A stretch of DNA of 32,000 nt from Nostoc punctiforme PCC 73102 (GTDB lineage Bacteria; Cyanobacteriota; Cyanobacteriia; Cyanobacteriales; Nostocaceae): NCBI RefSeq assembly GCF_000020025.1, contig NC_010628.1, positions 3,180,001-3,212,000 of the forward strand, written 5' to 3'. Position numbers and translations under genes: made by a program. Under the pieces are notes generated by a model, which was not told the origin of the DNA, ran no database searches, and was given only the letters and a program-made list of their open reading frames with translations. Of the stretch, positions 14,032-31,404 are shown in pieces (position 1 is the first letter of the stretch; every line of letters starts with the position of its first letter).

Positions 14032-14250
14032 TTACCTTTTGGGAAAAACTCGTTTAACAATACGAAGCTGGGATAACTTGAAATATCCTGAATGTTCCAG
14101 ATTATCACCCAGATATAGAGCAACGCTTTCATCATTCCACGCAGAAAAATTTAAGTTGGTGTTGAGGTTGACCACTTTTCCACGACCAACTGTGCTGGGA
14201 GCCTTGCGTTTTAAAGTCTTGAAGGAAATGGGTTCTGAGTTAGCTGTCAT
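14032..14250 (-). CDS. Small hypothetical ORF directly downstream of, and overlapping, the endonuclease stop
   Basis: The minus-strand ORF reads MTANSEPISFKTLKRKAPSTVGRGKVV... (72 aa from the ATG at 14250; further in-frame ATGs lie at 14259 and 14265). It overlaps the stop of the upstream gene. No motif was recognised. Confidence 0.3.
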   Translation of the reverse strand: MTANSEPISFKTLKRKAPSTVGRGKVVNLNTNLNFSAWNDESVALYLGDNLEHSGYFKLSQLRIVKRVFPKR

Positions 14251-15127
14251 CAGTAACATCTTCATGTGTAGAAACGGGTAATGGCTGTCCAACAAACAAT
14301 AAGCTGCTTTGTTGTAACTTCTCCTCAATTTGCCTTAACATTACTTCTAGCTCCACTCTTGGGCTGGTTTGTAAACCAAGACACTGTGCGATTCCATTTG
14401 CATTTGTACTCCAACGCTTTGTAAGTTGAATACGATAACCTGAAGCTTCAGTAAGCAACTCGTAGGAGTGAAAATGCATAGGATTTCCAAGACGAGCATC
14501 TTGAATATGTTCAAAGGAAAATTCTCGTTGCATGTAATCAATAAGGCAATCTTGAACTACCAAAACAAGATGTTTGCTGAGATGTTCAAACGTGTGAATT
14601 TTGTGATGGAGTTGCATCAAGATTGTCTTTGCAGTCATTTTCCAGTTCATACCAAAACCTTTCCCCGATGCGACATCCACATCTCTTACTGAAACACCAT
14701 GACGCTGGAGAAAACGTTGTCGTTCTGGCCAGACTGTTCCAGTAGTATCAAGAGTTTGCAGTTCAATGCTAATAAAATCGATGACTTTTCCTGAACGTAC
14801 AGAAGCAAGACAGTAATCTATACTACCTCCTGGTACTGCAATTTCAGGAACAATCCGAAGTTCGTTACCAGGCTCATGAAGTGTCAATAAATGAATACAA
14901 TCTGTAAAGATTTGACTACGTTCAAGAAGTCGAAACGGACAGATAATAATATTCCGGGCTTCCCTACCGTAAGAAACTGTACATGAGCCGATAGTAAGAT
15001 CAGGCTCACTTTTCCTATTCTTAAGACATTTGCGAGATAGGAAAGGACAGTTTTGACTAGAGGCAATATCACTCCAGATAAGTGATTGGTTTGTAGGATT
15101 ACCGTACAATTCGACAACTTTAGTCAT
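14240..15127 (-). CDS. Type II restriction endonuclease, NotI family (Cys4 metal site plus PD-(D/E)xK core)
   Basis: CPFLSRKC...GSCTV...ICPFR matches the remembered NotI N-terminal Cys4 cluster (CPFL, C-x-K, G-x-C-x-V, CPxR). IELQTLD matches NotI LEIQTMD. The ATG at 15127 overlaps the methylase stop as ATGA. The track's longer version begins at a GTG at 15142. Confidence 0.75.
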   Translation of the reverse strand: MTKVVELYGNPTNQSLIWSDIASSQNCPFLSRKCLKNRKSEPDLTIGSCTVSYGREARNIIICPFRLLERSQIFTDCIHLLTLHEPGNELRIVPEIAVPGGSIDYCLASVRSGKVIDFISIELQTLDTTGTVWPERQRFLQRHGVSVRDVDVASGKGFGMNWKMTAKTILMQLHHKIHTFEHLSKHLVLVVQDCLIDYMQREFSFEHIQDARLGNPMHFHSYELLTEASGYRIQLTKRWSTNANGIAQCLGLQTSPRVELEVMLRQIEEKLQQSSLLFVGQPLPVSTHEDVTDDS

Positions 15128-16212
15128 AACAGTAGTCCACACCTTTCATGAGCAGCAGTAATGTATTCGCCTGAAATATCAATTCCAATCGAGCTTCGTC
15201 CCAGTTGAAATGCAACCAAATTTGTTGTACCTGTTCCTGTAAATGGGTCTAGTACAACACCAGATTGTGGACAGGTAGCAAGAATCGGAAGTTTACAGAT
15301 ATCTTCAGGGTAGGGTGCAAAATGAAGTTTCCGTTTTTGAGTATCTTCTGGCAAAATATCCCAGACATCGCTAGGTTTACTACCATTTGGGTGATATTTG
15401 AGAAAATAGAAGCCGCGTTCAGTAAGTTCACGCGCTCGTCCAGAAACCTTTGCTGAATCGGAGTGCGTAGTTCGTTGCTGACCACGAATAATCATGCGAA
15501 AGTCAGATAATTTACCTAGTCGCACTTCCTGTAATATTTCACCAAGAGCCTTCAGAGCATTTGTACGTTCTAAATCACTAAGCGCTGTAGATAATTCAAT
15601 TTGCCGACGATAGCGTACACCAGAAACGCCTGTTGCAGAAACTACGGAACCATTGACAACCTTGGCTTGTCTTGGCTTCGAGCGAATTGCATCAACATCG
15701 TAAAAATAGCGGTCTGTCTTTACAAAATGGAAAACAGGTTCATACACATTTCGGAGTTTGTCTTTTGCATTATCAGGTGCGCCTTTTACTTTATTCCAAA
15801 TGACGCTATTGCGAAGAATCCAACCTTGTTTATCGCTCATTGCTAGTGCAACTCGCCAGGGTATACCAATCAGAGATTTACGCTGATATGTATCTCCGAG
15901 ATTTAACCAAAAAGATCCACTGGGTTTAAGAATTCGCTTTACTTCACAGAAGATTCCAAGCAAGTTATTGATATAGTCTTCCCACTTTTCCTCAAGACCA
16001 ATTCCTCCATTAATGTAAGCCCTTTGTCCCCAATAGGGGGGAGATGTGATTACACAATCGATACAATCAGCAGGAAATAACTTTAGTAGGGCATAACTGT
16101 CAGCCTGTAAGAACAGTGGTGTGCTGTTTGATGAAGTGAGGTAATCCTTAACAGAACCTATATTCTTCAGAAGCTCGTTCTCCTCAATCATCGGAACACC
16201 TAGCGAATTCAT
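15124..16212 (-). CDS. Beta-class N4-cytosine/N6-adenine DNA methyltransferase (PF01555-type), SPPY variant
   Basis: 362 aa. Motif IV (TSPPYWGQR) lies near the N-terminus and AdoMet motif I (LDPFTGTGTT) near the C-terminus, which is the beta permutation. It is adjacent to the endonuclease. Confidence 0.9.
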   Translation of the reverse strand: MNSLGVPMIEENELLKNIGSVKDYLTSSNSTPLFLQADSYALLKLFPADCIDCVITSPPYWGQRAYINGGIGLEEKWEDYINNLLGIFCEVKRILKPSGSFWLNLGDTYQRKSLIGIPWRVALAMSDKQGWILRNSVIWNKVKGAPDNAKDKLRNVYEPVFHFVKTDRYFYDVDAIRSKPRQAKVVNGSVVSATGVSGVRYRRQIELSTALSDLERTNALKALGEILQEVRLGKLSDFRMIIRGQQRTTHSDSAKVSGRARELTERGFYFLKYHPNGSKPSDVWDILPEDTQKRKLHFAPYPEDICKLPILATCPQSGVVLDPFTGTGTTNLVAFQLGRSSIGIDISGEYITAAHERCGLLL

Positions 16213-17643: not shown

Positions 17644-18711
17644 GTGCAACTTATCTCTAGACAAAGATATTTTTCATATATCTTTTTACTGATATTCTCC
17701 CTCGCTGGTTGTCAACGAGTCCAGTCTTTCAATCAGCGTCCAGCACCTTTACCACAAGACCCTTTAGTTCAAGTTTACTTTAACCATTCTGAGTCTTCAG
17801 AATACAAAGAAGCTTACCGTCAGCAAACTCGCTTGGGGGATGATTTAGAAAAAGAAATTGTCAATGCTATTACGCACGCTAAATCTACGATTGATGTGGC
17901 GGTGCAAGAATTACGTTTACCCAAAGTTGCCCAAGCACTGGTTGATAGACAAAAAGCTGGGGTAAAAGTCAGGATAATTTTAGAAAATACCTACAGCAGA
18001 CCTTGGAGTAGTTTAACATCTGCTGAAGTAAGTAAGTTAGATAAAAGGGAACAAGAACGCTACAACGAATTTCGCAAATTTATCGATATTAACCAAGATA
18101 ATCAACTCAGCCCAGCAGAAATCAATCAAAGAGATGCTTTAATAATTTTGCAGAATGCTAAAATTCCCTGGATAGACGATCGAGCAGATGGTTCAGCAGG
18201 TAGCAGCTTGATGCACCACAAATTTGTGATTGTAGATAATCGCATTGTCATTATCACTTCGGCCAATTTTACTTTAAGTGATACTTATGGTGATTTCACA
18301 AATTCCAATACTTTAGGCAATGCCAATAACTTATTGGAGATTGACAGCCCAGAATTAGCATCTTTATTTACAGAAGAGTTTAATATTATGTGGGGAGATG
18401 GGCCAGGAGGTAAGCCAGATAGTCGATTTGGGTTAGAAAAACCGATAAGATCGCCTAAAAAAATTACATTAAATCAAACTACAATTACTGTGCAATTTTC
18501 ACCAACTTCTCCGACTGAACCCTGGAGTAATAGTAGTAATGGTTTAATTGGTAAAACTTTAGATTCAGCAACCAAATCTGTTGATATGGCGTTATTTGTC
18601 CTTTCCGATCAGCGACTTGCTAATATCTTAGAAAATCGCCATCAACAAAATGTACAAATTCGCGCTTTAATTGAACCACAATTTGCATATCGTCCCTACA
18701 AGGACGGTTAA
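17644..18711 (+). CDS. Phospholipase D/HKD-superfamily lipoprotein, apparently 3'-truncated (second HKD motif missing)
   Basis: 355 aa with a GTG start and a lipobox (LAGC). The first HKD motif is HHKFVIVDNRIVIITSANFT. The second lobe begins (ATKSVDMALFVLSDQRLANILE...VQIRALIE mirrors AKSTIDVAVQELRLPKVAQALV...VKVRIILE), but the ORF ends about 12 aa later. Confidence 0.8.
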   Translation: MQLISRQRYFSYIFLLIFSLAGCQRVQSFNQRPAPLPQDPLVQVYFNHSESSEYKEAYRQQTRLGDDLEKEIVNAITHAKSTIDVAVQELRLPKVAQALVDRQKAGVKVRIILENTYSRPWSSLTSAEVSKLDKREQERYNEFRKFIDINQDNQLSPAEINQRDALIILQNAKIPWIDDRADGSAGSSLMHHKFVIVDNRIVIITSANFTLSDTYGDFTNSNTLGNANNLLEIDSPELASLFTEEFNIMWGDGPGGKPDSRFGLEKPIRSPKKITLNQTTITVQFSPTSPTEPWSNSSNGLIGKTLDSATKSVDMALFVLSDQRLANILENRHQQNVQIRALIEPQFAYRPYKDG

Positions 18712-18722
18712 GGCGGCAAATC

Positions 18723-18795
18723 AATGAAGGAAGCAGGAAGACGAAAGAAGGATGAAGTTAAGTCATCCCTCTTCCTACGAACTTCTTCCTTCATT
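18723..18795. repeat. MITE-like purine/pyrimidine hairpin element, copy A (11-bp terminal inverted repeats AATGAAGGAAG/CTTCCTTCATT)
   Basis: Read directly. The internal sequence gaaggatgaagtt...tcatccctcttcctacgaacttc is shared with copy B at 26690-26808. The right terminus contains the stop codon of the XRE gene. Confidence 0.7.
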
Positions 18796-19264
18796 CTTTT
18801 TCAACCCGCGTGGCGATCGCCCTTAGTAAATCCGCCAAATCAACCTGAGACATCAACTCAAGGTGGAAGGATACCCCTTCACCTTTGACACCATTGAGGG
18901 AAACTTTAGGTTGGGATAACCGGGCAATGATGTGCTGTGCCACCCTTGCGGCTTCTCTATCTGGCAATTGATCCACTACTGGAATTACGTCTTCAGCAAA
19001 CTTGTACTCTCTCACTGGTTGCGGCGCATTCTCACTGGCGCAAATGGCTATTAGTTCATCTCTGGTATAACCTAAGTGCGGCGCTAGCTTCTCAAGGGTT
19101 TTAAGTTCTGGCTCTTTCACCTCACCTTTTAAAATTCGCTCAATAGCTGGAGGTGATAAACCGACTTTTTTAGCAAAAGCCCTTTTTGATAGATGCCCTC
19201 TTGCCTTCTCAATAATTTCTGCCAGTTTTTCTATGCCCTCGTAGGTGTACACAGTTTTTGCCAT
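18791..19264 (-). CDS. XRE-family helix-turn-helix regulator (CI-like repressor candidate)
   Basis: 157 aa. The HTH segment LSKRAFAKKVGLSPPAIERILKGE is present. The gene is divergent from the rightward gene block. Confidence 0.85.
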   Translation of the reverse strand: MAKTVYTYEGIEKLAEIIEKARGHLSKRAFAKKVGLSPPAIERILKGEVKEPELKTLEKLAPHLGYTRDELIAICASENAPQPVREYKFAEDVIPVVDQLPDREAARVAQHIIARLSQPKVSLNGVKGEGVSFHLELMSQVDLADLLRAIATRVEKE

Positions 19265-19287
19265 ACACCCAGAATTACTGTTATACG

Positions 19288-19354
19288 TGAAACTTTACAA
19301 GATAGCATTGCAACACTATGTGTTTCATGATAAAGTGCAACATATAGTGTTTCA
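19288..19354. promoter_or_regulatory. Divergent promoter/operator region with two 19-bp direct repeats and a candidate rightward promoter
   Basis: TGCAACACTATGTGTTTCA (19309-19327) and TGCAACATATAGTGTTTCA (19336-19354) share 15/19 identity. An inverted TGAAAC half-site lies at 19288. TTGCAA (19308-19313), a 17-nt spacer and TAAAGT (19331-19336) overlap the repeats. Confidence 0.55.
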
Positions 19355-19364
19355 AAGAAGGTTT

Positions 19365-19838
19365 ATGCGCGTTAGAAAAAAGGAAATAGATGATTTTGTT
19401 AGTGAAAAAATCATCTATTCACCCACTAATGAATATCGTCATTGCTTGCATATCTTTGCTGCAATCGGCAAAGAGTTAATTTCTATTTACGCTTTGAAGT
19501 CTTGCAAAAAACAGATTGCTGGACTTTCACCATTACATTTCAAAATTAAACAGTCTATAGGAAAAAGAGAAAATCCGGTAACTATTTATATAGATAGGGA
19601 ACTAGATGAACTTTTGAAAAAGTTTGAAGGGATTCCCCGCTCTCATGTTTTAGAAAGATGTTTAATTTTGGAGGTTGATGAACGAATTTCTAAATGGAGA
19701 TGTGAAACTCCACTGCAATTTATTGGTTTAATGTCGTCAGAAACGCCTTTGAAAGACCTTAAGGGCGAGGTTTCATTAGGCAATGAAAGCCCCGCACCTA
19801 TTGGGCGGGGAAATAAGTACGCGCAGGTAGCGGCATGA
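19365..19838 (+). CDS. Hypothetical regulator with a ribbon-helix-helix-like segment (Cro/antirepressor position)
   Basis: The ATG at 19365 (MRVRKKEIDD...) is preferred to the track start at 19245, which would overlap the XRE start and the promoter region. The segment NPVTIYIDRELDELLKKFEGIPRSHVLERCL resembles RHH proteins. Confidence 0.6.
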   Translation: MRVRKKEIDDFVSEKIIYSPTNEYRHCLHIFAAIGKELISIYALKSCKKQIAGLSPLHFKIKQSIGKRENPVTIYIDRELDELLKKFEGIPRSHVLERCLILEVDERISKWRCETPLQFIGLMSSETPLKDLKGEVSLGNESPAPIGRGNKYAQVAA

Positions 19839-20020
19839 TAACACCTGCACAGCTTCTCAATTCATCAGCAACCAGATATCAACAGGCTCTTAACAACCTG
19901 CTTAAGTTTTGGCACATCAACGGGCAGTGCAAAACCTGCCCATATCGCACAAATTGCAGGGTACTGATTGAGCAGCAGATAGCTATTAAGGAGGAGGTTA
20001 AAGTCCTAATAAAAAAATAA
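19835..20020 (+). CDS. Small hypothetical protein (61 aa, Cys-containing)
   Basis: It has an ATGA start/stop overlap with the upstream gene and contains CKTCPYRTNC. Confidence 0.55.
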   Translation: MITPAQLLNSSATRYQQALNNLLKFWHINGQCKTCPYRTNCRVLIEQQIAIKEEVKVLIKK

Positions 20021-20042
20021 GTTGCGAATCTCACCTCGCAAC
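20021..20042. terminator. Hairpin after the early regulatory module
   Basis: gttgcga-atctcacc-tcgcaac is preceded by an A7-containing run (a strong terminator when read on the minus strand). On the plus strand only an interrupted T-rich tail follows. Confidence 0.4.
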
Positions 20043-20280
20043 CTGAATAATTTATTCCTTTGTTTACAAACCAAATAAGAATCTAACAACTTGATATTTA
20101 GCAAGCGCTAAATACGGGATTGTTGTTACCTGATTGCATATTGGGTCTTTATTAGGTTTTTATTATCGCACAAAAACCCTTAGATTTCTAGGCTTCCAAC
20201 GACATATTTGATAATGCGATTTTTTATTAAAATCGCGTGTTTACGTATATACTTACATACTTTACAAGGAGAGTATACCA

Positions 20281-20604
20281 GTGTCCAATATCACGATTTT
20301 ATCTGGTTCTGAATTAGATAAAAAGCACCAGCTAGAGCAATCAATATTAGAGGGCATTGAAGCGGGTAAAAAAGGCTTTCAGCAAGCCGCCCAAGCTTTA
20401 TTAAGAATTGATGAACTTGCACTATGGAGGGGCGAGGCAGTTTCATTTGATGCCTATCGCCAAAAATTCAAGGCGGTGCTAGAAGATTTAGATATCACAG
20501 ACAGACACTTAAACAGGTTACTTGCTGCTGAGAAGTGTGTACAAATGTTAAGACCAATTGGTCTTAACATTTGTACACACAAAGAAGTCATATCCGACCG
20601 TTGA
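20281..20604 (+). CDS. N-terminal part of a ParB/KorB-like DNA-binding protein (possibly split by a frameshift)
   Basis: GTG start 7 nt after AAGGAGAG. The pattern ...SFDAYRQKFKAVLEDLDITDRHLNRLLAAEKCVQMLRPIG continues logically into the next ORF in another frame. Confidence 0.6.
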   Translation: MSNITILSGSELDKKHQLEQSILEGIEAGKKGFQQAAQALLRIDELALWRGEAVSFDAYRQKFKAVLEDLDITDRHLNRLLAAEKCVQMLRPIGLNICTHKEVISDR

Positions 20605-21179
20605 CCCAACTTAAGGAGCCGCTTCAGGTACAGCAGGCTTACAAACGAGCGCTAGACATGGCTGAGAAGGAAGGGTGCAATCTCAAAGCCGAACACGTAC
20701 AAAAGGCTGTAGAAGAGATAAAACCGCCCAAGGTGAGGCTTGGGAAGTCACCACGCCCCCCAATTGGGGCAACAGTGCGGATACTTCCCCACTATGCCGA
20801 AGAGGAGTTTCACGGTGCAGAAGGTGTAATTGCCCAGCATCCATCAGTCGATCGGTGCATTGTCAGATTTGGAGATGAAACCAGCAAGCTGATTCCTGAC
20901 AACATGCTTGTGTGGGTAGAAGAAGTTAGGGAAGTAACCTCAACCAAACAGGAAGCTAAGGAACAAGCGATCGCCCTTGGGGTAAGAGTCGGATTACAAG
21001 CATTGCCAGATATCGAGCGTAATGAGGGAATTGCCAGCGAGAGGGAGCAGATTGAAGTGGAGGTGGCGATCGCTTCTTTCTTGCGATTGCTACCCAAGTT
21101 TTCGTACCAGCAGAAAGGTTTGGTGTATGAGCAATTGATGAAAAGTGGGTTTGCGCCAAAGAGGTCACAAGCAGCATGA
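20571..21179 (+). CDS. C-terminal part of a ParB/KorB-like protein with an SH3/KOW-like module
   Basis: The frame opens after a stop at 20565-20567, and the first possible start is a TTG. SHIRPLTQLKEPLQVQQAYKRAL...AEHVQKAVEEIK is typical of the segment that follows the HTH in such proteins. The true start is uncertain. Confidence 0.55.
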   Translation: MYTQRSHIRPLTQLKEPLQVQQAYKRALDMAEKEGCNLKAEHVQKAVEEIKPPKVRLGKSPRPPIGATVRILPHYAEEEFHGAEGVIAQHPSVDRCIVRFGDETSKLIPDNMLVWVEEVREVTSTKQEAKEQAIALGVRVGLQALPDIERNEGIASEREQIEVEVAIASFLRLLPKFSYQQKGLVYEQLMKSGFAPKRSQAA

Positions 21180-21508
21180 AATATACCAATTTACCCCAAC
21201 CAATTCCAAAACGAATATTGGGGATAGCTATTAACCGTCAACCTGGGGCGACTGGGCTTTGGGTAACGAGTAAGTACGATGTCTGGCATCTGCCAAACGG
21301 ATTGATATTCAAGCTAGGCGATCCCCTAAGAGTGAGTTGGTTCAAAGAAGGTAGAGAAGCGACAAGGGAAGAAGTACTTGAATCAATCAACAGTGGCTAC
21401 CCAATCCTTCTAGAAGCCGCTCAAATCGATGGTGCTGGGGCTGTTAAGAAATTGGAAGAAATGCGCGATCGGGCTTTGGAATTATTACCAGTGACGGTGA
21501 CGGTATGA
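21176..21508 (+). CDS. Hypothetical protein (110 aa)
   Basis: ATGA overlaps occur at both ends, indicating translational coupling within the operon. Confidence 0.65.
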   Translation: MKYTNLPQPIPKRILGIAINRQPGATGLWVTSKYDVWHLPNGLIFKLGDPLRVSWFKEGREATREEVLESINSGYPILLEAAQIDGAGAVKKLEEMRDRALELLPVTVTV

Positions 21509-22653
21509 GAGAAAGCTGTATATCGCACAAACCCAAATCACTGCTACTGGTTATCCGTGAAGACTATTTTAGGTTAGCAAAGTGTGACAAAGTACTATCC
21601 GCTTTACTTTCAGTTTTTGAATATTGGGCCAATGGTGAAATCTCCAAAAATCCCTCTTTAGCAGAAGAATCAATAGATTTAGGGATTCGCACAATATCAG
21701 AAATTGAAAAACTGACCTTGTGGATTGCGACAGACAAACAGATCCGCACCAAGCTTAAGGAGCTTGAAGAATTAGGCTTCGTATCATCTTGTAAAGGAGT
21801 AGGCAATCACACCGCATACAGCCTTCACGTTCCCTACTTGCAGCAAGCCTTAGATGCACTTGATTGGTCTCTATCTTTATCAGAATTACGAAAACAAAAC
21901 CCTTCTCGATGCACCCATACCTCCGGTTTATTAACCGAACCCCCTCCGGTTAATAAACCGCACCCCTCCGGTTTATTAACCGAACCCCCTCCGGTTAATA
22001 AACCGCACCCCTCCGGTTTATTAACCGAACCACTATATATAGAAGAATTTAAGAATTTAATTAAAGAATGTGTAAGAAGCGCTGACGCACAAAACACACA
22101 CACTGACGACGAGGACGAGGTTGATTTTGCTAGTGCAACCTCTCGTAGAGAAGAAAACCAATCACCTGTAGATCCTTTTCTTGCCACCAATCCCAAAGAA
22201 GAACCTGCGCTTTTGCCCCACGTCTTACCGCTTGAATCGAATATTCCGGCGAATGAGAATAACAATCATTTTCATAAAACAGCAGATAGAGTGCGATCGC
22301 AGTGGGAGCAAACAGGGGTATTGCCAAAAATCCCAATGGAAATAGATGCATGGGCGGCGATTGATTTAGGGCAAGAGGTGATTAATGCTTACCGTTTGAG
22401 TGGCAGGATAACCACTATCAAGCGGGGTGATATTGTGCCTGAATTTGCCTTATACGTGAGCGGTCAAAACAAAGGTAAAGATGTTGATTACGGCTACGCA
22501 TATATCAAAAAACTGGAATTAGATCCGCGCCAATGGGAGACTCTAGCCGCATTGGTTTTGAAGTGGCAAACATCACATCAGACGGGTAATCGCAGTATCA
22601 GCATTGTCCGTGAGGTCAAACGTAGACCGCTAATTGAGCTTAATTTGAGGTAA
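21505..22653 (+). CDS. Replication-initiator-like protein (lambda O-like organisation) containing an internal iteron array
   Basis: 382 aa. The N-terminal winged-helix-like segment is ISEIEKLTLWIATDKQIRTKLKELEELGFVS. A Pro-rich repeated linker (SGLLTEPPPVNKPHP, about 2.4 copies) is encoded by the iterons. The gene is followed by a loader-like gene. Confidence 0.6.
   Translation: MRESCISHKPKSLLLVIREDYFRLAKCDKVLSALLSVFEYWANGEISKNPSLAEESIDLGIRTISEIEKLTLWIATDKQIRTKLKELEELGFVSSCKGVGNHTAYSLHVPYLQQALDALDWSLSLSELRKQNPSRCTHTSGLLTEPPPVNKPHPSGLLTEPPPVNKPHPSGLLTEPLYIEEFKNLIKECVRSADAQNTHTDDEDEVDFASATSRREENQSPVDPFLATNPKEEPALLPHVLPLESNIPANENNNHFHKTADRVRSQWEQTGVLPKIPMEIDAWAAIDLGQEVINAYRLSGRITTIKRGDIVPEFALYVSGQNKGKDVDYGYAYIKKLELDPRQWETLAALVLKWQTSHQTGNRSISIVREVKRRPLIELNLR
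21921..22075. repeat. Candidate replication origin: 45-bp tandem repeat (2.4 copies) carrying five CGGTT-N4-AACCG palindromes, then an AT-rich tract
   Basis: Perfect 45-mers lie at 21921-21965 and 21966-22010, with a partial copy to 22031. The palindromes start at 21924, 21947, 21969, 21992 and 22014 (spacing 22-23 bp), with cores alternating TATT/AATA. 22032-22075 is actatatatagaagaatttaagaatttaattaaagaatgtgtaag. Confidence 0.6.
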
Positions 22654-22656
22654 ATC

Positions 22657-23295
22657 ATGCTAACTCGTGAAAATTTTGAAGCCTGCATTCAGGAATTAGA
22701 AAGTTTTTATAACGGCACTATTCTTAACGGAGGAATTTTAGAATCTGTTTGGTACAAGACTTTAAAGCACTTACCTTTGGAAAAATTACAAAGTGCGATC
22801 GCGGGATGTTTTAAGAAGCATCCACGCCAGTACAATTTTTTCCCCTCAGCCGGACAGATTTTAGATTTTGCAAATTTTGTAGGGGGCGAGTATAGGGAGC
22901 CAGGGGAATCCATATTAGGGGATTTCAGCTTACCTATATTGCCTTCTGTTGAAGAAAGGCTTACGCCTGAGCAAAAGGCTGAATTAAATAAGCGCGGGAG
23001 ACTCCAAGCGCGGATTATAGTGAATGCTCAAAGCTGGATGACACCAGAACAAAAAGACGCTCTTGTAGAGCAACTAAAGCTTAAAGAAACTCACGAGTTA
23101 GAGGCGATCGCTTCTACGTCTGCGCGATTACCACGTCGTCCTAAATTCAACAATCTTTCTTTGACGATTAAAAATTTAGAGCAGGAGTTGGGCATACAAT
23201 GCGACTACGAAGAAGAGGAAGTCACGAGTGAGGTAAAAGCCTCAAGCTATGACACAAGAGCAATTGCTCGTCAGTGGTTGGAGGGATCTCGATGA
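22657..23295 (+). CDS. Hypothetical protein, possibly a helicase loader/replisome organiser (G39P-like pattern)
   Basis: 212 aa. The N-terminal pattern SVWYKTLKHLPLEKLQSAIAGCFKKHPRQYNFFPSAGQILDFA resembles remembered loader proteins. It lies immediately after the initiator-like gene. Confidence 0.4.
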   Translation: MLTRENFEACIQELESFYNGTILNGGILESVWYKTLKHLPLEKLQSAIAGCFKKHPRQYNFFPSAGQILDFANFVGGEYREPGESILGDFSLPILPSVEERLTPEQKAELNKRGRLQARIIVNAQSWMTPEQKDALVEQLKLKETHELEAIASTSARLPRRPKFNNLSLTIKNLEQELGIQCDYEEEEVTSEVKASSYDTRAIARQWLEGSR

Positions 23296-23744
23296 CTAAA
23301 ATTGACTTCATCCTCCGGCAATCCGCAACCAACAGAGATCAACTCACAACCCTAAGCGACACCCAATTAGAAATGGCGTGGAGCATCGCTCGCTATGACG
23401 TAAAAGCGGCTTACAGGTACTGCGTGATGATGGATGCCAAAAACCAGATGAAATGCCCATCCTGTGGCAAGGAATTTGTAAATTCCTACGAACAACATGA
23501 TGGAAGTATGGCTTTTGTTTGTGCGTCGTGTAGTCCAAGAAGGAAGAAGAATTCGGAATTCCCTCTGCCTTCATTGACACTAAACCCATCCGACTATCAC
23601 ACCGTATGCACTGGGAAACCAATTTGCATTGATGCCCAAACCGCCAAGCATCAAGCTAAGAAATGCAAAATCATCAACAAAGTTACGGGAGCTTGTGTGG
23701 TGCGAACTTTGGTTATGGTGGGCGATCGCGGGTACTGGCAATAA
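23292..23744 (+). CDS. Zinc-ribbon hypothetical protein
   Basis: The ATG at 23292 follows GGAGG and overlaps the upstream stop as ATGA. CPSCGKEF...CASCSP forms a CxxC...CxxC pair. Confidence 0.65.
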   Translation: MTKIDFILRQSATNRDQLTTLSDTQLEMAWSIARYDVKAAYRYCVMMDAKNQMKCPSCGKEFVNSYEQHDGSMAFVCASCSPRRKKNSEFPLPSLTLNPSDYHTVCTGKPICIDAQTAKHQAKKCKIINKVTGACVVRTLVMVGDRGYWQ

Positions 23745-23765
23745 AAACATAAAGGTATTGTAAAA

Positions 23766-24422
23766 ATGATTGATAGAGAAACTCTTGGTAAAACTGTTCG
23801 CCGTGCCTTGGTCAATTGGGCAAAAGAGCAAGAAAACCCTCCTACTTTTTGGAATGACTCGGATGAGTATCAAGAAGTAAACGAACATATTGGCGAAGCC
23901 GTGCAACGAGCAATATTGAGAGAGTTTGCCGACCATGTTGTTTGGTTCAGTGGTGACGACGAGCGCCATGCCATACCCTCAGAAGGGATGGTAAAACTAA
24001 TCAACTACGTAGAAAAAGAACTAAACCAAAGCAACGTTAATCTTGCCAATTTGCACAGTTCAATTGTTTGGGGTATCCGTAAAGTTAAATCTGATGAACG
24101 TGATATTGCAGTCAGATTTTTAGCTTTTAAGGATGACACTTTAGCTTACTTACGAGCACTGGTTTTAATTACCGAGATGGCCAACGGCGACCAAACCCAC
24201 GCTGAGAAAAGAATTCTGCTTAATCATCTAATCAAGCAATTAGAAGGGGCGATCGTTAAAATTCGCAACGTTGAAAACTATCTCCTTACCAATTATTGGG
24301 AAAGGGAGGATGTTTTTAAATCCGATTATCCGAACCGATATTGGCGAGAAAAGGTTGCTCAGTTAGAAGAAGAAATTAAAAGTTTGAAATCTGGTAAGCC
24401 GCCAAATGAATCACCATTTTAA
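23766..24422 (+). CDS. Hypothetical protein (218 aa)
   Basis: Long ORF in the operon with coding-like composition. No motif was recognised. Confidence 0.65.
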   Translation: MIDRETLGKTVRRALVNWAKEQENPPTFWNDSDEYQEVNEHIGEAVQRAILREFADHVVWFSGDDERHAIPSEGMVKLINYVEKELNQSNVNLANLHSSIVWGIRKVKSDERDIAVRFLAFKDDTLAYLRALVLITEMANGDQTHAEKRILLNHLIKQLEGAIVKIRNVENYLLTNYWEREDVFKSDYPNRYWREKVAQLEEEIKSLKSGKPPNESPF

Positions 24423-27400
24423 AATTGGCTCAATCGCCTCTGGTATGGGAATGCACCTGCATGGATTGAAGCAAATTGGTGGTGTCCCTGTGTGGGCAAT
24501 CGAATGTGATGAGGCGATCGCCCACTGCTACCACCAAAATCACAAAAGCGAAGTCTACATCAAAAAAGTTCAAGACGTTGCCCCATCTGATTTGGCAGAT
24601 ATTGATTTGTTAATAACTACCCTCAGCTGTAAAAATGCATCCATTGCCAACGCTAACCGGGGCGAATTGCCAGAAGATGCAGCAGCCGGGATAGCCACCG
24701 GTGACATCATCAAAGCCTTAAAGCCCCAGTACTTCATGCTTGAGAACGTCTGGGGATACCGCAAATTCGAGTCTTTTAAACAAATTCAAGCGGCGCTGGA
24801 TGAGTGTGGCTACTATTCCCGCTTTTACAAATTCAATTGCCGTAATTGGGGTATTGCTCAAAGCCGCGATCGCCTTTATCTTTTGGCAAGCAAGGATGGT
24901 ACTTTCGCTGATCCTGTACCTCCACAAATCTCAGAGGTTGGGTGGTATGAGGTGATCGCTGACTTGATTGATGAGCTACCAGAAACAACACTTGCACCTT
25001 GGCAGTTGCGTAAGTTTCCAGAGTTAGCCCGTGAAGCTAATTCTTGTTTAATCCCAGACCACTCTAATTGGACAAATTTGATTCCTCAGTCTGCCCCTTG
25101 CTCAACAGTTAGAGAAGGACACCAAACCTTTAAAGCTTTAATCAAACGTGCCGGTGGGGGAAGAGATAGCGATCGCCTTTACCAAAGTGATGAACCATCT
25201 TTCACTATCCGAGCGATGGGTAGAAAGTCTGATAATCACTCTCGCATAGCCGACGCGATCGTGGGTGACAGAATTGTTGCGGTGACTCCTCGCGCTTGTC
25301 TGCGGTTTTTTGGCGATAAAGAAACAGCAGATAATATCTGGCTTCCTCCTACCAAGTCGCTAGCGAATGAGGTAGTAGGCAATGGCGCTAGTTGGGTGAT
25401 GTTCAAAAGCCTATTTGAGCATTTATCCCAGTCTGTGCCGACGTTGCTTTCCATCGAATCAAACTCCTTGAGGGATATTTCGACTTCGCTCAATACAAGT
25501 GGTGGCGAAATGGTTGAGAACTTTTTTCAGATAGGCGATCGCGTTGAACTTGTATGCGATGTTTTATTTGGTGATATAAACCTCAAAGCTAAAAACCCCA
25601 ATGCCAAACTAGCCATTGCTGGAGAGTGCGCCGAAGTATGCGGCGTTCGAGGTACAAGACTTGCTCTTAGTGTTGGCGGTGAGCCATTTGATTGTCCCAT
25701 TAGGTTAGTGAAAAAAAATTTAGATGTTCCTACCGCCGATACCGCAATGTTTACGTCAGAGCAGGGTATAGGGACTCAGGTAGAGAATAATTCTCATTCT
25801 GAACCTTGCCCCCCTCCACCCAAAGAATCAGATAAGTGGTATACACCACCCAATATTCAGGATTTACTCACGCAGGTACTCGGCGCAGTTGACCTTGACC
25901 CTTGCGCCGATGACGGTAAACATATCAAAGCGGCAAACCATTACACCGCATCTGATGACGGACTTGCTCAGGAGTGGTACGGACGGGTGTTTATGAACCC
26001 TCCCTATTCATGCCCTGGCAAGTGGATGGCGAAATTGCAAGCAGAGATAGAGGCTGGAAGGGTAACGGAGGCGATCGCCCTGGTTCCGGCAGCGACAGAT
26101 ACCAATTGGTTGCACCCGCTCCTTGACACTCAACCCATCTGCTTTTGGAAAGGCCGCATCAAATTTTTAGATACGAACTATCAACCAAAACTCTCGGCTA
26201 GGCAATCACACTGCCTGCTGTATTGGGGTACTAATGCACAGAAATTCAAACAAGTTTTTGACGAAGTTGGAACTGTGAAAAATATAAGCCAGTCTGCTCT
26301 TCTCTGCGAGACGCTGCGCGATGGGGTTTCCCCAAGTGGAAGAACTGGCGTTGAATCTGAAACTGCTTGGAATCCTGCTGATTTTGGAGAAGTACCACGC
26401 ATTGCTGATGGCGATCAACTAACGATTTTTTATGACACCCATGAGCCACCAGACCCCGACAATTACCCGTCTATCGCGGCGTATGAACAGGCATGGCAGG
26501 AATGGGAGAAAAAGCTGACTAGGAGCAACGTAAAACAGGGAGTTCACGTTGTTGACCAGCTTGGATCGTTGGGGATTATCAAAGAAAACTTGGGGTTTGG
26601 GTTTGTCGTTGATTGGTTGGGTGACGCTGTTGCTTACAACTGGGAGCGAGACAGCGATCGCATTGATACTTTTAAGATCGCAAATCAAGGAAGGATGAAG
26701 GAGGAAGGAGGAAGAAGTGATGAAGTTGAATCTGAATCATCATCCCTCTTCCCGACGCTCGCAGACTCGCTACCGCTACGCTATCTCCCCTCTTCCTGCG
26801 AACTTCCCAATCAAGTTTTTAAAAACAAGGAGCAAAATACTGTGACAACTTTCCAATTTTCTGGCACACAGGCGATCGCCTCTCAAATTGCCCAATTACA
26901 AGAGCAATTGAACAAACTCACCGCCTCTTTAGAGCCATACCAAGAGTGCGAACAAAAAGCTGAGGAATTGCGCCAAGAAGTGGCGCAATTTGGGCGGGAA
27001 ATGGTAGATAAGGGAATTCCCCAGAATGACATTTTAAGTTGGGCGCGATCGCTTTATAGCGCGGCTAGTGGTGTGGAGTTAGTGGAGAGTGATAGTAGTG
27101 TAATTGCTGCTCAAAATGAAATTATTAGTGAATTGAAAGCCGGAAATCATGTATTGCGTGAGCAATATAGCGAAGTCATAAGACAAAGAGATTTACTAAT
27201 AAAGCAGGTTGAAGACAATGATAATGATATGGATGTGCAACTAGCGGAACAACAATTAATACCAGAAGTGGAAGCTTCAAACAAAGAACTTACCGAAGGC
27301 GTAGCAAGCTTTACTGAAGGCGATCGCGTTTGTGTAAATGCTATACACGAATTAGAACACTTACTCGAAAGACTTGGTACAGTAGTTGGAATAAAAGGTA

Positions 27401-27948
27401 ACTCTATTGCCGTACTTTTTGACGCAACAGATAATGAAGGTCAGCACGAAATAATTACCGATAGAAGTAATTTGGTGCTACTTTTGAAAGCTACTCCAGA
27501 CAATCACGCACACATTAAAGCTTCTAACTTTATAGCTACTATTCGTACCAAAGCCGGAGCAAATAACATTAATTGGCAGAATATCAGCGAACTGTGCCAA
27601 GGCAATCATCTTATTTTAAAAGAATTGCTTTTAACGACCACTACAAAAATTCAAAAAGAACTGATTCAAAAGCTACCTCAACTGATGGCTGATTACATTG
27701 CTGAAACTGGTGACATTACAGATATGCAGCTTGTTGGCGATAAATTTAAGTCTGAAGTTGAGGCGTTGTTAGAAGTAAAAAAGTCTCTGGTGTATCAAGC
27801 TGGTGATTGGGTAAAAAGTACAGAATCGGGTGAAATCTGGCAAGTACGAAATTTTGACGGTGAGTGGTTGTCGGTGAAACGAGACAACAAGATTGGCTCA
27901 CTGCATAAATCAGAAGTTGAGTTGATTCAACAAGAAATCGCTGCTTGA
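24406..27948 (+). CDS. Fusion protein: C5-cytosine DNA methyltransferase + Dam-type (PF05869-like) N6-adenine methyltransferase + long SH3-like/coiled-coil tail
   Basis: In aa 1-340 I read motif I (IASGMG), motif IV variant (TLSCKNAS), ENV (MLENVWG), QSRDRLYLL, VTPRACLRFFG and GNGAS. In aa ~476-615 I read DKWYTPP, DLDPCA, FMNPPYS, LVPAATDTNW and KGRIKF. The remainder has heptad-like and GD(R/W)V modules. Confidence 0.85.
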   Translation: MNHHFKIGSIASGMGMHLHGLKQIGGVPVWAIECDEAIAHCYHQNHKSEVYIKKVQDVAPSDLADIDLLITTLSCKNASIANANRGELPEDAAAGIATGDIIKALKPQYFMLENVWGYRKFESFKQIQAALDECGYYSRFYKFNCRNWGIAQSRDRLYLLASKDGTFADPVPPQISEVGWYEVIADLIDELPETTLAPWQLRKFPELAREANSCLIPDHSNWTNLIPQSAPCSTVREGHQTFKALIKRAGGGRDSDRLYQSDEPSFTIRAMGRKSDNHSRIADAIVGDRIVAVTPRACLRFFGDKETADNIWLPPTKSLANEVVGNGASWVMFKSLFEHLSQSVPTLLSIESNSLRDISTSLNTSGGEMVENFFQIGDRVELVCDVLFGDINLKAKNPNAKLAIAGECAEVCGVRGTRLALSVGGEPFDCPIRLVKKNLDVPTADTAMFTSEQGIGTQVENNSHSEPCPPPPKESDKWYTPPNIQDLLTQVLGAVDLDPCADDGKHIKAANHYTASDDGLAQEWYGRVFMNPPYSCPGKWMAKLQAEIEAGRVTEAIALVPAATDTNWLHPLLDTQPICFWKGRIKFLDTNYQPKLSARQSHCLLYWGTNAQKFKQVFDEVGTVKNISQSALLCETLRDGVSPSGRTGVESETAWNPADFGEVPRIADGDQLTIFYDTHEPPDPDNYPSIAAYEQAWQEWEKKLTRSNVKQGVHVVDQLGSLGIIKENLGFGFVVDWLGDAVAYNWERDSDRIDTFKIANQGRMKEEGGRSDEVESESSSLFPTLADSLPLRYLPSSCELPNQVFKNKEQNTVTTFQFSGTQAIASQIAQLQEQLNKLTASLEPYQECEQKAEELRQEVAQFGREMVDKGIPQNDILSWARSLYSAASGVELVESDSSVIAAQNEIISELKAGNHVLREQYSEVIRQRDLLIKQVEDNDNDMDVQLAEQQLIPEVEASNKELTEGVASFTEGDRVCVNAIHELEHLLERLGTVVGIKGNSIAVLFDATDNEGQHEIITDRSNLVLLLKATPDNHAHIKASNFIATIRTKAGANNINWQNISELCQGNHLILKELLLTTTTKIQKELIQKLPQLMADYIAETGDITDMQLVGDKFKSEVEALLEVKKSLVYQAGDWVKSTESGEIWQVRNFDGEWLSVKRDNKIGSLHKSEVELIQQEIAA
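26690..26808. mobile_element. MITE-like hairpin element, copy B, inserted in frame inside the methyltransferase fusion gene
   Basis: A 119-bp insert lies between direct repeats AATCAAG (26683-26689 and 26809-26815). 119+7=126 nt, which is 42 codons with no stop. The internal sequence is related to copy A. Confidence 0.65.
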
Positions 27949-28433: not shown

Positions 28434-28711
28434 AATACCAGTATTTTTACCACTGCGCTTTTATGTGCATCCTGTTGTCAAACGACCATCTAAGAGAACT
28501 TACGGAGATATATCACGTACAAGACGGTACAAAGATTCCTGTGCTAATTGAATTTCTTTGGTCGCTCCGACATTTACAAGATAAGCTGGAAGACTTGCCG
28601 CCAATGGAGAATAAAACCCACTTAGTGGATCGGGCGCAAGAGATGGATTGCGCGATCGCGTCTGAAATTATAGAATCTGTTGAAAAATGCTTACAATCGA
28701 TTCCCCCCTAG
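28418..28711 (+). CDS. Hypothetical protein (97 aa; start uncertain)
   Basis: GTG start overlapping the upstream stop, with an alternative ATG at 28463. It overlaps the next gene by 25 nt. Confidence 0.5.
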   Translation: MAKAVKYQYFYHCAFMCILLSNDHLRELTEIYHVQDGTKIPVLIEFLWSLRHLQDKLEDLPPMENKTHLVDRAQEMDCAIASEIIESVEKCLQSIPP

Positions 28712-31404
28712 CCACAGATACCGCCGCACGCTACACCGCCGCCCATTTAATTGAAGTGGCAAAACAGGAAAACAACTTTGCGCCTTTAGTAACTGTGGAT
28801 TTTGGGAAAGCAGAAAGCATAGTTGTTGAATACCAAGAAACAATCACTCTTCCTGAAAGCTGGGAAAGTGTAAGGGCGATCACTTCCAACGGACAAACTT
28901 ACACCCCAGCAATTGATCCCGAATCGCCTCAAGCGGGGGAATTTGTCTACAATCCCTACACCAACACAGTGCAAGTTTATGGGACAGTAGGGCGGAGTCT
29001 TCAAATTTACGGTAATACCCAAACAATTAAATTCTTCCCTCCCCTGCTTCCCCCTCCCTACCCTCAACTTTTTACCAATTTGCCATTAGAGGGGGCTATT
29101 CAATTTACTCGCCAATTTGAACAACAACCATCTGCCCAATTTGAATTAGAGCTAAGGCTATCTAAAGCGCAAATACAAAGTATTTTTGCACCGGGGACAG
29201 AATTGGATTTGTACGGGTTGCCGTTGAGAATTAACAGTTTAAATATTAAAGAATTACCCCGATCGATATACCCAGATGGACGTTGTAAAATAAGCGCCTC
29301 ACTGGGTTCGCGCTGGGAAAATTATCTTGATGAGCCGTGCTTCTTGCGGTCGGATGGGGGAAATAGTACATCAATCAGTGAGCCATTTCAAGACACCGAA
29401 TGCACCGCGCCCACGCCATCACTAACCGATCCCAACTTCAACACGACCATACAGCAGTTGCTTGCCAAGATAGGTATTGCCTACACTGGGCCCAACCTTG
29501 CGTCTGTACCAATACCTCAAGGTACAGCAAGGGATACAGTGGTGAATCCGTTGCAGCTACTGAGCGATCGCTTGTTAGTCGCAAATTCTTTTGTGAGGTG
29601 GAGTAACGCATCTGCGGTTGAGGTGGTTCCGATTGGTAGCGGAAGGGTGTGGAATTATCAAGAATCTGATATTAAAGGAGAGGATGGAGTTGATACGAGT
29701 TTTGAGGCGATCGCCAAACTCAGCAAGCGCCGACTGACAGCAATTCCTAACTTAAATCCCCCGCCCCCCGACTTAGTGAATTTTCCAAGCGAGGTGCAGT
29801 TGCCACCAGTGCCACAACTACGGGGCGAGTTACCAACAGCGCTGGCGTTTGAATACCCAAATAGCGAACTAACTGGGGAATTTAGCGAGATTCGATCTGA
29901 CCAGCAAGAGCGCACCCAAGGGCAAAAACCTAGATATACAAGAAAGCCAAGAAAAATAGAAGAACGGATCGACGGCGATAAAAATGCTCATATTCCTTTA
30001 GAGGGTGTGCAGTCCATCCAAAATATGAGCTTGATTTTTGATATTGGCGGACAAACTAAAACCCGCTCAACTACCACTACTGAGGATGGGGCGACGGTTA
30101 AAGTTGTTGACGAGATTTGGGGTTTCGTTTGCTATGCCGCTCAAATTTATGATGATAGCCGCGATCGCCTTAATGGCAATCCTAATGATTATTGGGTGTG
30201 CTTGAAGCGGACAACCACAGATTACACCTACGACGAAGATACTGGCTACTTACTTTCTACTGCAACATCTGGCTATAATACTGTACGCTTCCGCCAAGAA
30301 TCAGCGGACAATCCCGAAACACTGGGGATGGATTCAGGCGATCCAGAACTCGATTTGTATAAATTTATTCAAATACCAGTTCTTGGGCGCACTAGCTACT
30401 ACCTCAAATTGATGCCTGAATACAGTAGCGAGGGGTTATTTGAATTAGTAAAAGTGTGCAACAGAGACGGTACTAGTACACTTCAGCCGCTAATTAATCC
30501 AGACTACGCGCCGCCGTACTATGTGGAGTATGAGCGCACGGAATCAGTCGCGTTTGCAAGTCGCCCCAACCCAGATAATGAAGGTAGAACCGGAAGTGAA
30601 GACGACCCCCTTGCGCCTGATTTAACTGCAGGGGAAGAATCAAAATTTGAAGCTTTCACTCAAGTGACTGTTGCTACATACCAACAAAAGTTAATAGGGT
30701 TTGAGGGTGGCTACCCAACTTACGAGCGCGGGGAAGAAAATACACCCCAAAAGTTCACCAAGTACATCAAACAATTCAAGGCTCAAGGCCCCGCGATCGC
30801 CACTGCCCTAGAAGAAATCTCAATTGAAGAGGGCACTGGAGAACTGCCCACAGCCACTAGAAGTCCACCACAATTTACCAAAGAACAACCTGCTGAAAAA
30901 CCTAATAAAACCGAAGAGGAGAAACAGAAATATCGGTATTTTCTGCAAACTGCGGGGTATACGGCGGCCGCCCCGATTAATGGCAGTGAAAGCTTCCCCT
31001 TAGCTAAAACTTTTGAGCAAGCGCTGACTGCTGCTCGGTGTAAATTGGCTATTGAAAATTGGAGAAATGGATTTACAGAGACGTTGCAAGTTGGGGGGAA
31101 TTTGGGGATTCGAGAGGGCGATCGCTTTAACTACACTTGCAATGGTGAATTTCGCCAAAGGATAGTACTAGGAGCGCAAACTACACTCAATATTTTGGGC
31201 GCGGTTGACGGTGTGCCTAAGGTGACTTCTGTTACTTCCCTCACATTGGGGCGATGGATGTTGCCAGAGTTGACTTATAGTAAAGTGCCAGTGCCCAAGG
31301 AGCCGAAAGCGCCTAGATTTAATATCACCGTAACTGATGTGGTAAGCGCCGAACTAGGCAGTATTATTGATTGGGCGAAGATTAGAAGTAGAAGAAATCC
31401 TTAG
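28687..31404 (+). CDS. Large hypothetical protein (905 aa), possibly a virion/tail-associated structural protein
   Basis: Uninterrupted 2.7-kb ORF with beta-rich, Pro-rich segments (FFPPLLPPPYPQLF, NLNPPPPDLVNFPSEVQLPPVPQL). The structural role is assigned only from size, composition and position in a phage-like element. Confidence 0.7.
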   Translation: MLTIDSPLATDTAARYTAAHLIEVAKQENNFAPLVTVDFGKAESIVVEYQETITLPESWESVRAITSNGQTYTPAIDPESPQAGEFVYNPYTNTVQVYGTVGRSLQIYGNTQTIKFFPPLLPPPYPQLFTNLPLEGAIQFTRQFEQQPSAQFELELRLSKAQIQSIFAPGTELDLYGLPLRINSLNIKELPRSIYPDGRCKISASLGSRWENYLDEPCFLRSDGGNSTSISEPFQDTECTAPTPSLTDPNFNTTIQQLLAKIGIAYTGPNLASVPIPQGTARDTVVNPLQLLSDRLLVANSFVRWSNASAVEVVPIGSGRVWNYQESDIKGEDGVDTSFEAIAKLSKRRLTAIPNLNPPPPDLVNFPSEVQLPPVPQLRGELPTALAFEYPNSELTGEFSEIRSDQQERTQGQKPRYTRKPRKIEERIDGDKNAHIPLEGVQSIQNMSLIFDIGGQTKTRSTTTTEDGATVKVVDEIWGFVCYAAQIYDDSRDRLNGNPNDYWVCLKRTTTDYTYDEDTGYLLSTATSGYNTVRFRQESADNPETLGMDSGDPELDLYKFIQIPVLGRTSYYLKLMPEYSSEGLFELVKVCNRDGTSTLQPLINPDYAPPYYVEYERTESVAFASRPNPDNEGRTGSEDDPLAPDLTAGEESKFEAFTQVTVATYQQKLIGFEGGYPTYERGEENTPQKFTKYIKQFKAQGPAIATALEEISIEEGTGELPTATRSPPQFTKEQPAEKPNKTEEEKQKYRYFLQTAGYTAAAPINGSESFPLAKTFEQALTAARCKLAIENWRNGFTETLQVGGNLGIREGDRFNYTCNGEFRQRIVLGAQTTLNILGAVDGVPKVTSVTSLTLGRWMLPELTYSKVPVPKEPKAPRFNITVTDVVSAELGSIIDWAKIRSRRNP

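Follow-up and report, generated by a model that had tools for sequence, protein, structure and literature searches.

We report the analysis of a candidate replication origin that lies inside the gene of an initiator-like protein, in a prophage-like element of the cyanobacterium Nostoc punctiforme PCC 73102. The stretch of DNA under analysis (hereafter, the window) comprises 32,000 nt (NC_010628.1, 3,180,001-3,212,000), and all coordinates given below are window positions unless a locus is named. The open reading frame (ORF) of interest encodes a 382-aa protein and belongs to a tightly packed plus-strand early operon (19245 to 27948), which is divergent from a repressor-like gene. An earlier note on this DNA, made from its letters alone, had pointed to a repeat array and an AT-rich stretch within the ORF and had likened their layout to the origin inside gene O of phage lambda. 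The main features of the locus are the following.

21505-22653, plus strand: gene for the 382-aa initiator-like protein, with an N-terminal domain, a disordered repeat linker and a C-terminal C1 domain (ORF, homologues and AlphaFold2 (AF2) model).
21550-21915, plus strand: coding region of the N-terminal domain (N-domain, approximately residues 16-137), predicted to be winged-helix-like (AF2 and Foldseek).
21920-22031, no strand assigned: iteron array of five 22/23-bp units, each with a 14-bp dyad CGGTT-N4-AACCG (Tandem Repeats Finder, dyad scan and locus comparison).
22032-22075, no strand assigned: AT-rich, purine-rich tract, candidate DNA-unwinding element (16 % GC; conserved position).
22246-22653, plus strand: coding region of the C-terminal C1 domain (modular alignment and homologue searches).
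22657-23295, plus strand: gene for a 212-aa all-helical partner, candidate helicase recruiter or loader (position, co-variation, weak fold and profile likeness).
18791-19264, minus strand: XRE/CI-type helix-turn-helix (HTH) repressor-like gene (Pfam HTH_3 at 1e-08; PHROG transcriptional regulator and repressor families).

Tandem Repeats Finder (TRF) describes 21920-22031 as a perfect repeat of period 45 with 2.5 copies (the earlier note had counted 2.4) and 100 % matches, and also scores it as a period of 22-23 with five copies. An exact scan confirms the five palindromes that had been described, placing the dyads at 21924-21937, 21947-21960, 21969-21982, 21992-22005 and 22014-22027, with spacings of 23, 22, 23 and 22 bp. 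The dyad cores alternate between TATT and AATA, even sites being exact reverse complements of odd sites; with their flanks included, the units become direct 22/23-bp repeats of the form CCTCCGGTT-WAWW-AACCG-MACC. The sequence CGGTTNNNNAACCG occurs exactly five times, always in the array, and the window holds no further exact site. When one mismatch or fewer is allowed, the window contains six dyad matches against 0.58 expected, a count that none of 100 shuffles reached. The dyads occupy nt 420-523 of the 1149-nt gene, with the array starting at nt 416, and fall in two reading frames. The array does lie in the middle of the 382-aa protein, as had been claimed, and is read in frame as SGLLTEPPPVNKPHP repeats, forming a perfect 15-aa repeat in a linker predicted to be disordered. 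The AT-rich stretch of ~44 bp said to follow it directly is likewise present at 22032-22075, where a GC content of 16 % (43 % window mean) ranks it among the lowest 0.15 % of 44-bp windows. The tract opens with a ACTATATATA box, 4 nt past the last dyad. Its coding strand is rich in purines, a property that it shares with the lambda tract.

For comparison we used 25 related loci (labelled L001 and so on), from which subsets of 22, 17 or 5 loci are named with the corresponding results. In every locus a tandem DNA repeat follows the N-domain closely, at ~nt 335-525 of the gene, and the repeat unit depends on the type of N-domain, of which eight subtypes were distinguished. Type A1 comprises the window, L001, L003, L011 and L015; A2, L005 and L012; A3, Phormidesmis and marine metagenome-assembled genomes (MAGs); A4, Nostoc linckia; B, C, D and E are unrelated N-domains. 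The repeats associated with each type are as follows.

A1: CGGTTTATTAACCG, period 22/23 bp.
A2 and A3: CGGTCAAATGACCG, period 23 bp, up to 7 copies.
A4: CGGTAAAAAYACCG alternating with CGGTCAAATGRCCG.
B: CCGTNACGG, period 14 bp.
C: a 24-bp C-rich unit.
D and E: two 15-bp units.

The pattern CGGT-N6-ACCG, with half-sites one helical turn apart, is common to all A-types. In 17 A-type loci, which span Nostoc to Phormidesmis and marine MAGs, its exact form is found 66 times within the genes (19.9 kb) and not once in 185 kb of flanks; with one mismatch or fewer, the same loci yield 4.7 matches per kb inside the genes against 0.22 per kb outside. The B, C, D and E repeats are confined to the gene in four of the five loci tested, and L013 has one site outside. 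Both the dyad consensus and the 23-bp phasing are kept across cyanobacterial orders at 36-56 % protein identity. With a 14-bp dyad every 23 bp, the A2 and A3 loci have successive sites in frames 2, 1, 0, 2, 1, 0, and one and the same site is translated as GQMT, TVKQP or ERSND. The earlier note had held that its claim would fail if related elements kept the peptide repeat and lost the palindromes; the opposite is seen, the dyads being conserved in three frames where the peptide differs.

At closer range, 83 consecutive nt (three iterons and ACTATATATAGAAGAA) are 100 % identical in the window, L003 and L011, whereas in the N-domain coding sequence next to this block the three agree at only 40-77 % of columns. 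The array is also 100 % identical in L003, L011 and L015 despite diverged flanks, and among close relatives even synonymous array positions are invariant. Iteron number, which the earlier note had suggested comparing and which is here counted from assemblies in which short reads could collapse such repeats, changes in two-site (45-bp, 15-aa) steps, with five sites in the window and L015 and three in L001, L003 and L011; the L001 protein is 96 % identical to that of the window. The repeats of the other N-domain types, too, each have an AT-rich stretch after them. In 20 of 22 loci, those from genomes of 50-55 % GC among them, no 40-mer of the gene is poorer in GC than the one that directly adjoins the end of the array, and the ACTATATATA box stands exactly 4 nt past the last dyad in A1, A2 and A4, the corresponding place in A3 being taken by AGCT and then TTAAAGAA. 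These sequence comparisons indicate that selection acts on the DNA, not on the peptide, in the repeat, and that the N-domain and its repeat constitute a specificity module.

Two further properties of the window array were considered and set aside. As single-stranded DNA (ssDNA), neighbouring iterons in 21915-22035 fold into two 14-bp hairpins (free energy dG -32.7 kcal/mol, z -8.9), with cruciform potential. This strong folding arises because site orientation alternates; in the A2 and A3 relatives, where sites are mostly in one orientation, the hairpin property is absent, and a role as an RNA or ssDNA hairpin was therefore rejected. Control by methylation of the CCGG inside each window iteron was also dropped, the A2 and A3 iterons having no CCGG.

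Homologues of the 382-aa protein, all from Nostoc or other cyanobacteria, include 18 close ones (Nostoc and metagenomes) and amount to 787 representative clusters at E<=1e-3; in public records, members of the family are labelled 'hypothetical', 'helix-turn-helix' or 'MarR' throughout. The AF2 model predicts a structured N-domain (residues 16-137, predicted local distance difference test (pLDDT) 75-90), a disordered linker (residues 138-260, pLDDT below 30) and a helical C-terminal domain (C-domain). The predicted topology of the N-domain is H-H-E-H-H-E-E, and its top 50 Foldseek matches in the PDB are nearly all winged-helix DNA-binding proteins (ArsR, MarR, TubR, ORC), with a best E of 0.086 and probabilities of 0.9-0.98. 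The winged-helix-like N-terminus proposed earlier is compatible with a confident model and with the fold matches, the latter at an E of only ~0.09. An IATDKxxR helix is invariant in all A-type N-domains and is a candidate recognition helix.

At least three types of C-domain, C1 to C3, can be distinguished. The A1 N-domain is paired with C1 in the window and with C2 in L003, L011 and L015, and C1 is found with A1, A2, B, C, D and E N-domains. The C1-sharing relatives (57-65 % identity) with B, C and D N-domains have PHROG matches to replication-initiation, O-like and DnaD-like families at E 3e-9 to 3.5e-25, which cover their N-domain and linker; among proteins sharing the C-domain, P0012 and P0013 match O-like PHROGs at E 3e-9 to 7e-8. 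The earlier note had regarded a hidden Markov model match unrelated to replication as damaging to its claim, and none was obtained.

Nostoc megaplasmids and two Cylindrospermopsis phages, Cr-LKS4 and RM-2018a, also carry the C1 domain. In Cr-LKS4, g58 (L025 2489-4477) encodes a 663-aa 'hypothetical protein' with C1, and the gene contains a PEAK-type 12-bp repeat and a 40-mer of 7 % GC; g57 (L025 4467-5174), directly after it, may be a partner-like homologue, and the two genes may form an unannotated replication module of that phage. A C1 protein is encoded on plasmid unnamed5 of Nostoc sp. UHCC 0302 (L026 5407-6573) and likewise on four more plasmids (three from Nostoc, one from Halotia). These plasmids measure 250-450 kb, and their C1 proteins are annotated 'helix-turn-helix domain-containing protein' and adjoin AlkB and methyltransferase genes; the C1 genes there may be integrated prophage modules or plasmid replication genes.

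The 212-aa ORF begins 4 nt beyond the stop codon of the 382-aa ORF, and comparison of the loci shows that the type of downstream gene tracks the C-domain type, not the N-domain type. A homologue of the 212-aa protein is present in each C1 locus irrespective of the N-domain, mostly at E 1e-24 to 8e-80; the match between L013 and the window ORF is weak (E 8e-4), and L013 is closer to L005 and L009 (E 1e-11 to 1e-14). The A1/C2 loci carry a different downstream protein, of 190 aa. For the 212-aa AF2 model (pLDDT 73), Foldseek finds nothing below E 2.5 in the PDB and weak matches (E 4.5e-3 to 0.2) among viral models, whose names include 'replisome organizer', 'replicative helicase inhibitor G39P N-terminal', 'loader and inhibitor of G40P' and 'replication protein P'; the N-terminal 75 residues superpose on those models at a root-mean-square deviation of 2-3 A. 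With hhalign, the region of an invariant FP motif in the family aligns with residues 11-74 of SPP1 G39P (E 0.039, probability 1.3 %), and residues 98-113 of lambda P are matched at E 0.018 (probability below 3 %). The invariant motif 'NFFPSAGQILDFA' (F62, P63) aligns with 'PFLPSPGQFVAWC' of lambda P (L027 1583-2284) and with 'kFPPTVSDLL' of G39P (L028 8346-8726), and may be a short motif, statistically weak, common to helicase loaders that otherwise look unrelated. The earlier note had seen in this gene a likeness to a helicase loader: co-variation and a weak fold and profile likeness agree with that suggestion, and a significant family match does not accompany them. Position and co-variation, not demonstrated homology, are what hint at a helicase-recruiting role.

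The divergent arrangement of repressor and early operon is the same in related prophage loci. We regard the related loci as prophages because they combine the same early region with a XisA/XisC-family recombinase at the flank and a portal gene (phrog_145) further on. The recombinase gene (PF27551/PF27132) is located at 5356-6480 in L003, 4417-5499 in L005, 3308-4390 in L009, 4525-5598 in L011 and 1272-2471 in L012; in relatives it adjoins the divergent repressor gene, and it is apparently the prophage integrase. The XisA/XisC family is known for heterocyst-specific excision elements, in which DNA is excised during heterocyst development. The 212-aa protein is also recorded on an 8.2-Mb contig, from which we take the element to be chromosomal.

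On this evidence we consider it probable that 21920-22075 is the vegetative, theta-type replication origin of the prophage-like element, located inside the gene of its own initiator. Independent comparative evidence supports such an interpretation. By analogy with lambda, the early operon would be transcribed from the repressor-controlled region near 19.3 kb, and dimers of the winged-helix-like N-domain of the 382-aa protein would then bind the five CGGTT-N4-AACCG dyads. With one helical turn between half-sites and about two between sites, all the bound protein would lie on one face of the DNA. The resulting nucleoprotein complex would stress and open the adjacent AT-rich, purine-rich tract, beginning with its ACTATATATA box, and the C-domain, tethered by the disordered linker that the iterons encode, would contact the 212-aa product, which in turn would bring the host replicative helicase. 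Binding of the protein to its sites, unwinding of the tract, helicase recruitment and present activity of the window copy are all steps that we infer.

Several observations weigh against this interpretation. The winged-helix assignment stands on an AF2 model built from a shallow alignment (10 sequences) and on Foldseek matches at E ~0.09. Pfam returns no match for the 382-aa protein, including none to Phage_rep_O or to Rep_3-type families, and its two best PHROG matches, 'replication initiation O-like' (phrog_391, E 0.06) and 'replication initiation protein', are non-significant (E 0.06-0.09). Alignment of the family with hhalign shows no significant homology to lambda O (probability 0.1 %) or SPP1 G38P (below 1 %). 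Searches of the C1 domain against the PDB, Pfam and PHROGs found no usable family, and those of the 212-aa protein found none in Pfam or among PDB sequences and, among PHROGs, only phrog_10105, of unknown function; the C1 domain and its partner being without a known family, the helicase-recruitment step is drawn by analogy. The window gave no evidence of a helicase, a primase or DnaA boxes. Neither was an integrase, of the XisA/XisC type or any other, seen there, so that the element may be a non-replicating remnant. The related loci, finally, are not phylogenetically independent, and DNA conservation and N-domain co-variation reveal a specificity module, not the firing of an origin.

This last point also favours a first alternative, namely that the dyads bind the N-domain and serve not as an origin but in autoregulation or a block of the early operon, in titration of the protein to set incompatibility or copy number, or in partition, as a centromere-like site. 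The best N-domain fold matches include the centromere-binding winged-helix proteins TubR and pNOB8 AspA as well as MarR/ArsR repressors, and one relative was named 'MarR family transcriptional regulator' by the Joint Genome Institute (JGI). We nevertheless judge this alternative unlikely. An AT-rich tract is kept past the last site in nearly all loci (20 of 22), at a fixed 4-nt offset in three subtypes, and this counts against an operator or a centromere because an unwinding element requires such a tract and they do not. There is, in addition, no partition NTPase among the neighbouring genes; the relatives match replication-initiator, not repressor, families; and the layout reproduces the lambda origin feature for feature. 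In iteron replicons autoregulation and origin function commonly coexist, and a binding role of this kind therefore partly overlaps the origin interpretation.

A second alternative, which we hold to be very improbable, is that exchangeable modules meet at the conserved block, as a recombination junction or a segment of recent transfer, and that recent exchange, not selection for initiator binding, has kept it. In its favour, the similarity of the window (A1/C1) to L003, L011 and L015 (A1/C2) stops just past the AT-rich tract, where the mosaic breakpoint therefore lies. A breakpoint at the origin is, on the other hand, what would be expected in lambdoid phages, since iterons and N-domain make up one functional module and C-domain and partner another. 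A recent transfer would have left the adjoining N-domain sequence identical, which it is not, and the dyad and its 23-bp phasing persist across cyanobacterial orders. That the repeat is a protein-only feature, an expanding Pro-rich flexible linker in which codon choice has incidentally produced the palindromes and the AT-rich stretch and neither has a function as DNA, would accommodate a perfect in-frame repeat in a predicted disordered region and copy-number steps of whole 15-aa units, but we reject it on the basis of dyad conservation (with none in the 185 kb of flanks), frame cycling over unrelated peptides, a DNA period of 22-23 bp that is not a multiple of 3, synonymous sites that stay invariant over the 83 nt as flanking codons drift, and unrelated N-domain types that each have their own DNA repeat in the same place; on the sequence comparisons it is in effect already refuted.

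Other contents of the window provide its context. HIP1 octamers (GCGATCGC) number 41, which points to cyanobacterial DNA. Host housekeeping genes occupy 1-13.6 kb (pyrophosphatase, PanD, an HtrA-like protease, a pentapeptide-repeat protein and a Met-zincin); the gene of the 623-aa pentapeptide-repeat protein (7446-9317, minus strand) holds 15/30/45/60-bp TRF arrays at 7711-8387, which are ordinary in cyanobacteria. To the left of the prophage-like region, genes for a NotI-like restriction endonuclease and an N4/N6 DNA methylase (14240-16212, minus strand) constitute a type II restriction-modification pair, after which come a NifS-like aminotransferase and a PLD-family nuclease-like gene (17644-18711). 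The ORFs after the 212-aa gene encode a 150-aa zinc-ribbon protein, a 218-aa protein of unknown function and a methyltransferase, with no phage-encoded DnaB-type helicase among them. The methyltransferase (24406-27948, plus strand; 1180 aa) is a fusion of C5-cytosine and Dam-like N6-adenine methyltransferases with a long C-terminal extension of no assigned function; it shares the operon with the initiator-like gene and is represented by two separate genes in L003 and L011. Further on, a 905-aa protein (28687-31404, plus strand) with no Pfam domain matches phrog_15468 (unknown function) at E 1.7e-169 and is conserved in L001. The window has no tRNA gene that would mark an attachment site, and a promoter and terminator scan gave background level only.

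Beyond this locus, the balance of the evidence tilts slightly towards a large, unannotated, cyanobacteria-wide family of phage and prophage initiators, built from independently shuffled cassettes and with the origin overprinted on the linker in three frames. One cassette would pair the N-domain with the iterons, the other the C-domain with the partner, and the family size would be that of the 787 representative clusters. To our knowledge, the replication modules of cyanobacterial prophages are essentially uncharacterised, and in the literature we found no relevant description of a cyanobacterial prophage origin or of this protein family. If the interpretation is true and the elements are active, filamentous cyanobacteria would have in them their first defined temperate-phage origins, and Nostoc and Anabaena genetics would gain a ready supply of orthogonal replicons whose specificity can be programmed: candidate replicons of ~1.8 kb (initiator, origin and partner) for organisms with few genetic tools. 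Reading the array as a lambda-type origin would give these genes a function and show where replication begins in a common class of Nostocales prophages. It would also provide a clean natural case of overlapping DNA and protein constraint, in which one 14-bp site is kept in three frames, and an instance of modular origin-specificity swapping outside the enterobacterial lambdoid phages. The current understanding of how such origins work is unchanged, and the design will not surprise a specialist; the family-wide evidence is unusually clean.

Among known systems, iteron plasmids of the RepA/pi/TrfA type resemble the locus in combining a winged-helix-type initiator (predicted here) with ~22-bp direct iterons beside an AT-rich unwinding element, and handcuffing or autoregulation would be possible in both. 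Plasmid iterons normally lie outside the rep gene, whereas those described here lie inside the gene; no Rep_3-type family is matched, and the element is chromosomal and accompanied by phage genes. The oriL of the Bacillus phage SPP1 is also similar, with repeats inside the initiator gene (gene 38, G38P) and a small helical gene (the G39P loader) right after it. Sister proteins of the 382-aa protein match the PHROG 'DnaD-like helicase loader', a label that SPP1 gene 38 also bears, and the N-terminal 75 residues of the 212-aa protein weakly match G39P-N and 'replisome organizer' models, a likeness that is non-significant in view of the 1.3 % hhalign probability. SPP1, however, has the G40P helicase, and here no phage DnaB-type helicase is adjacent.

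The likeness to phage lambda extends over many features. A lambdoid origin consists of iterons and an AT-rich tract in the middle of O, with four iterons in lambda and six in Stx (Shiga toxin) phages, which lengthens O (PMC7466680). In the lambda genome (NC_001416), the four iterons occupy nt 349-433 of gene O at spacings of 20, 24 and 23 bp and are followed by an A-rich tract of 32 % GC and then by gene P. The lambda layout to which the earlier note had pointed is matched in gene position, spacing and AT-rich, purine-rich tract. The origin lies mid-gene in the initiator in both cases (array start at nt 416 here, nt 349 of O); dyad-symmetric iterons, four to six in lambdoids, are about two turns apart (22-23 bp here, 20-24 bp in lambda); an AT-rich, purine-rich tract comes directly past the last iteron; and the iterons encode a flexible linker between a DNA-binding N-domain and a partner-binding C-domain (predicted here). 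In both, iteron number varies among relatives and alters protein length, the next gene co-varies with the C-domain as in an O-P-like pair, and the origin is placed within a repressor-controlled early operon. The differences lie in the iteron (CGGTT-N4-AACCG here, with the central 4 bp alternating in orientation, against TCCCTC-N6-GAGGGA), in the filamentous cyanobacterial host, in the XisA/C-type recombinases of related elements, and in the absence of detectable homology to O or P (no Pfam Phage_rep_O or lambda P match; hhalign probability below 3 %). In lambda, a 28-bp palindrome stands to the right of the AT-rich tract. The locus thus falls outside the lambda O and P families by sequence and fits the lambda-type, origin-in-initiator architecture on every computationally testable point, adding new protein sequence families to the well-known class of origins that reside inside initiator genes.

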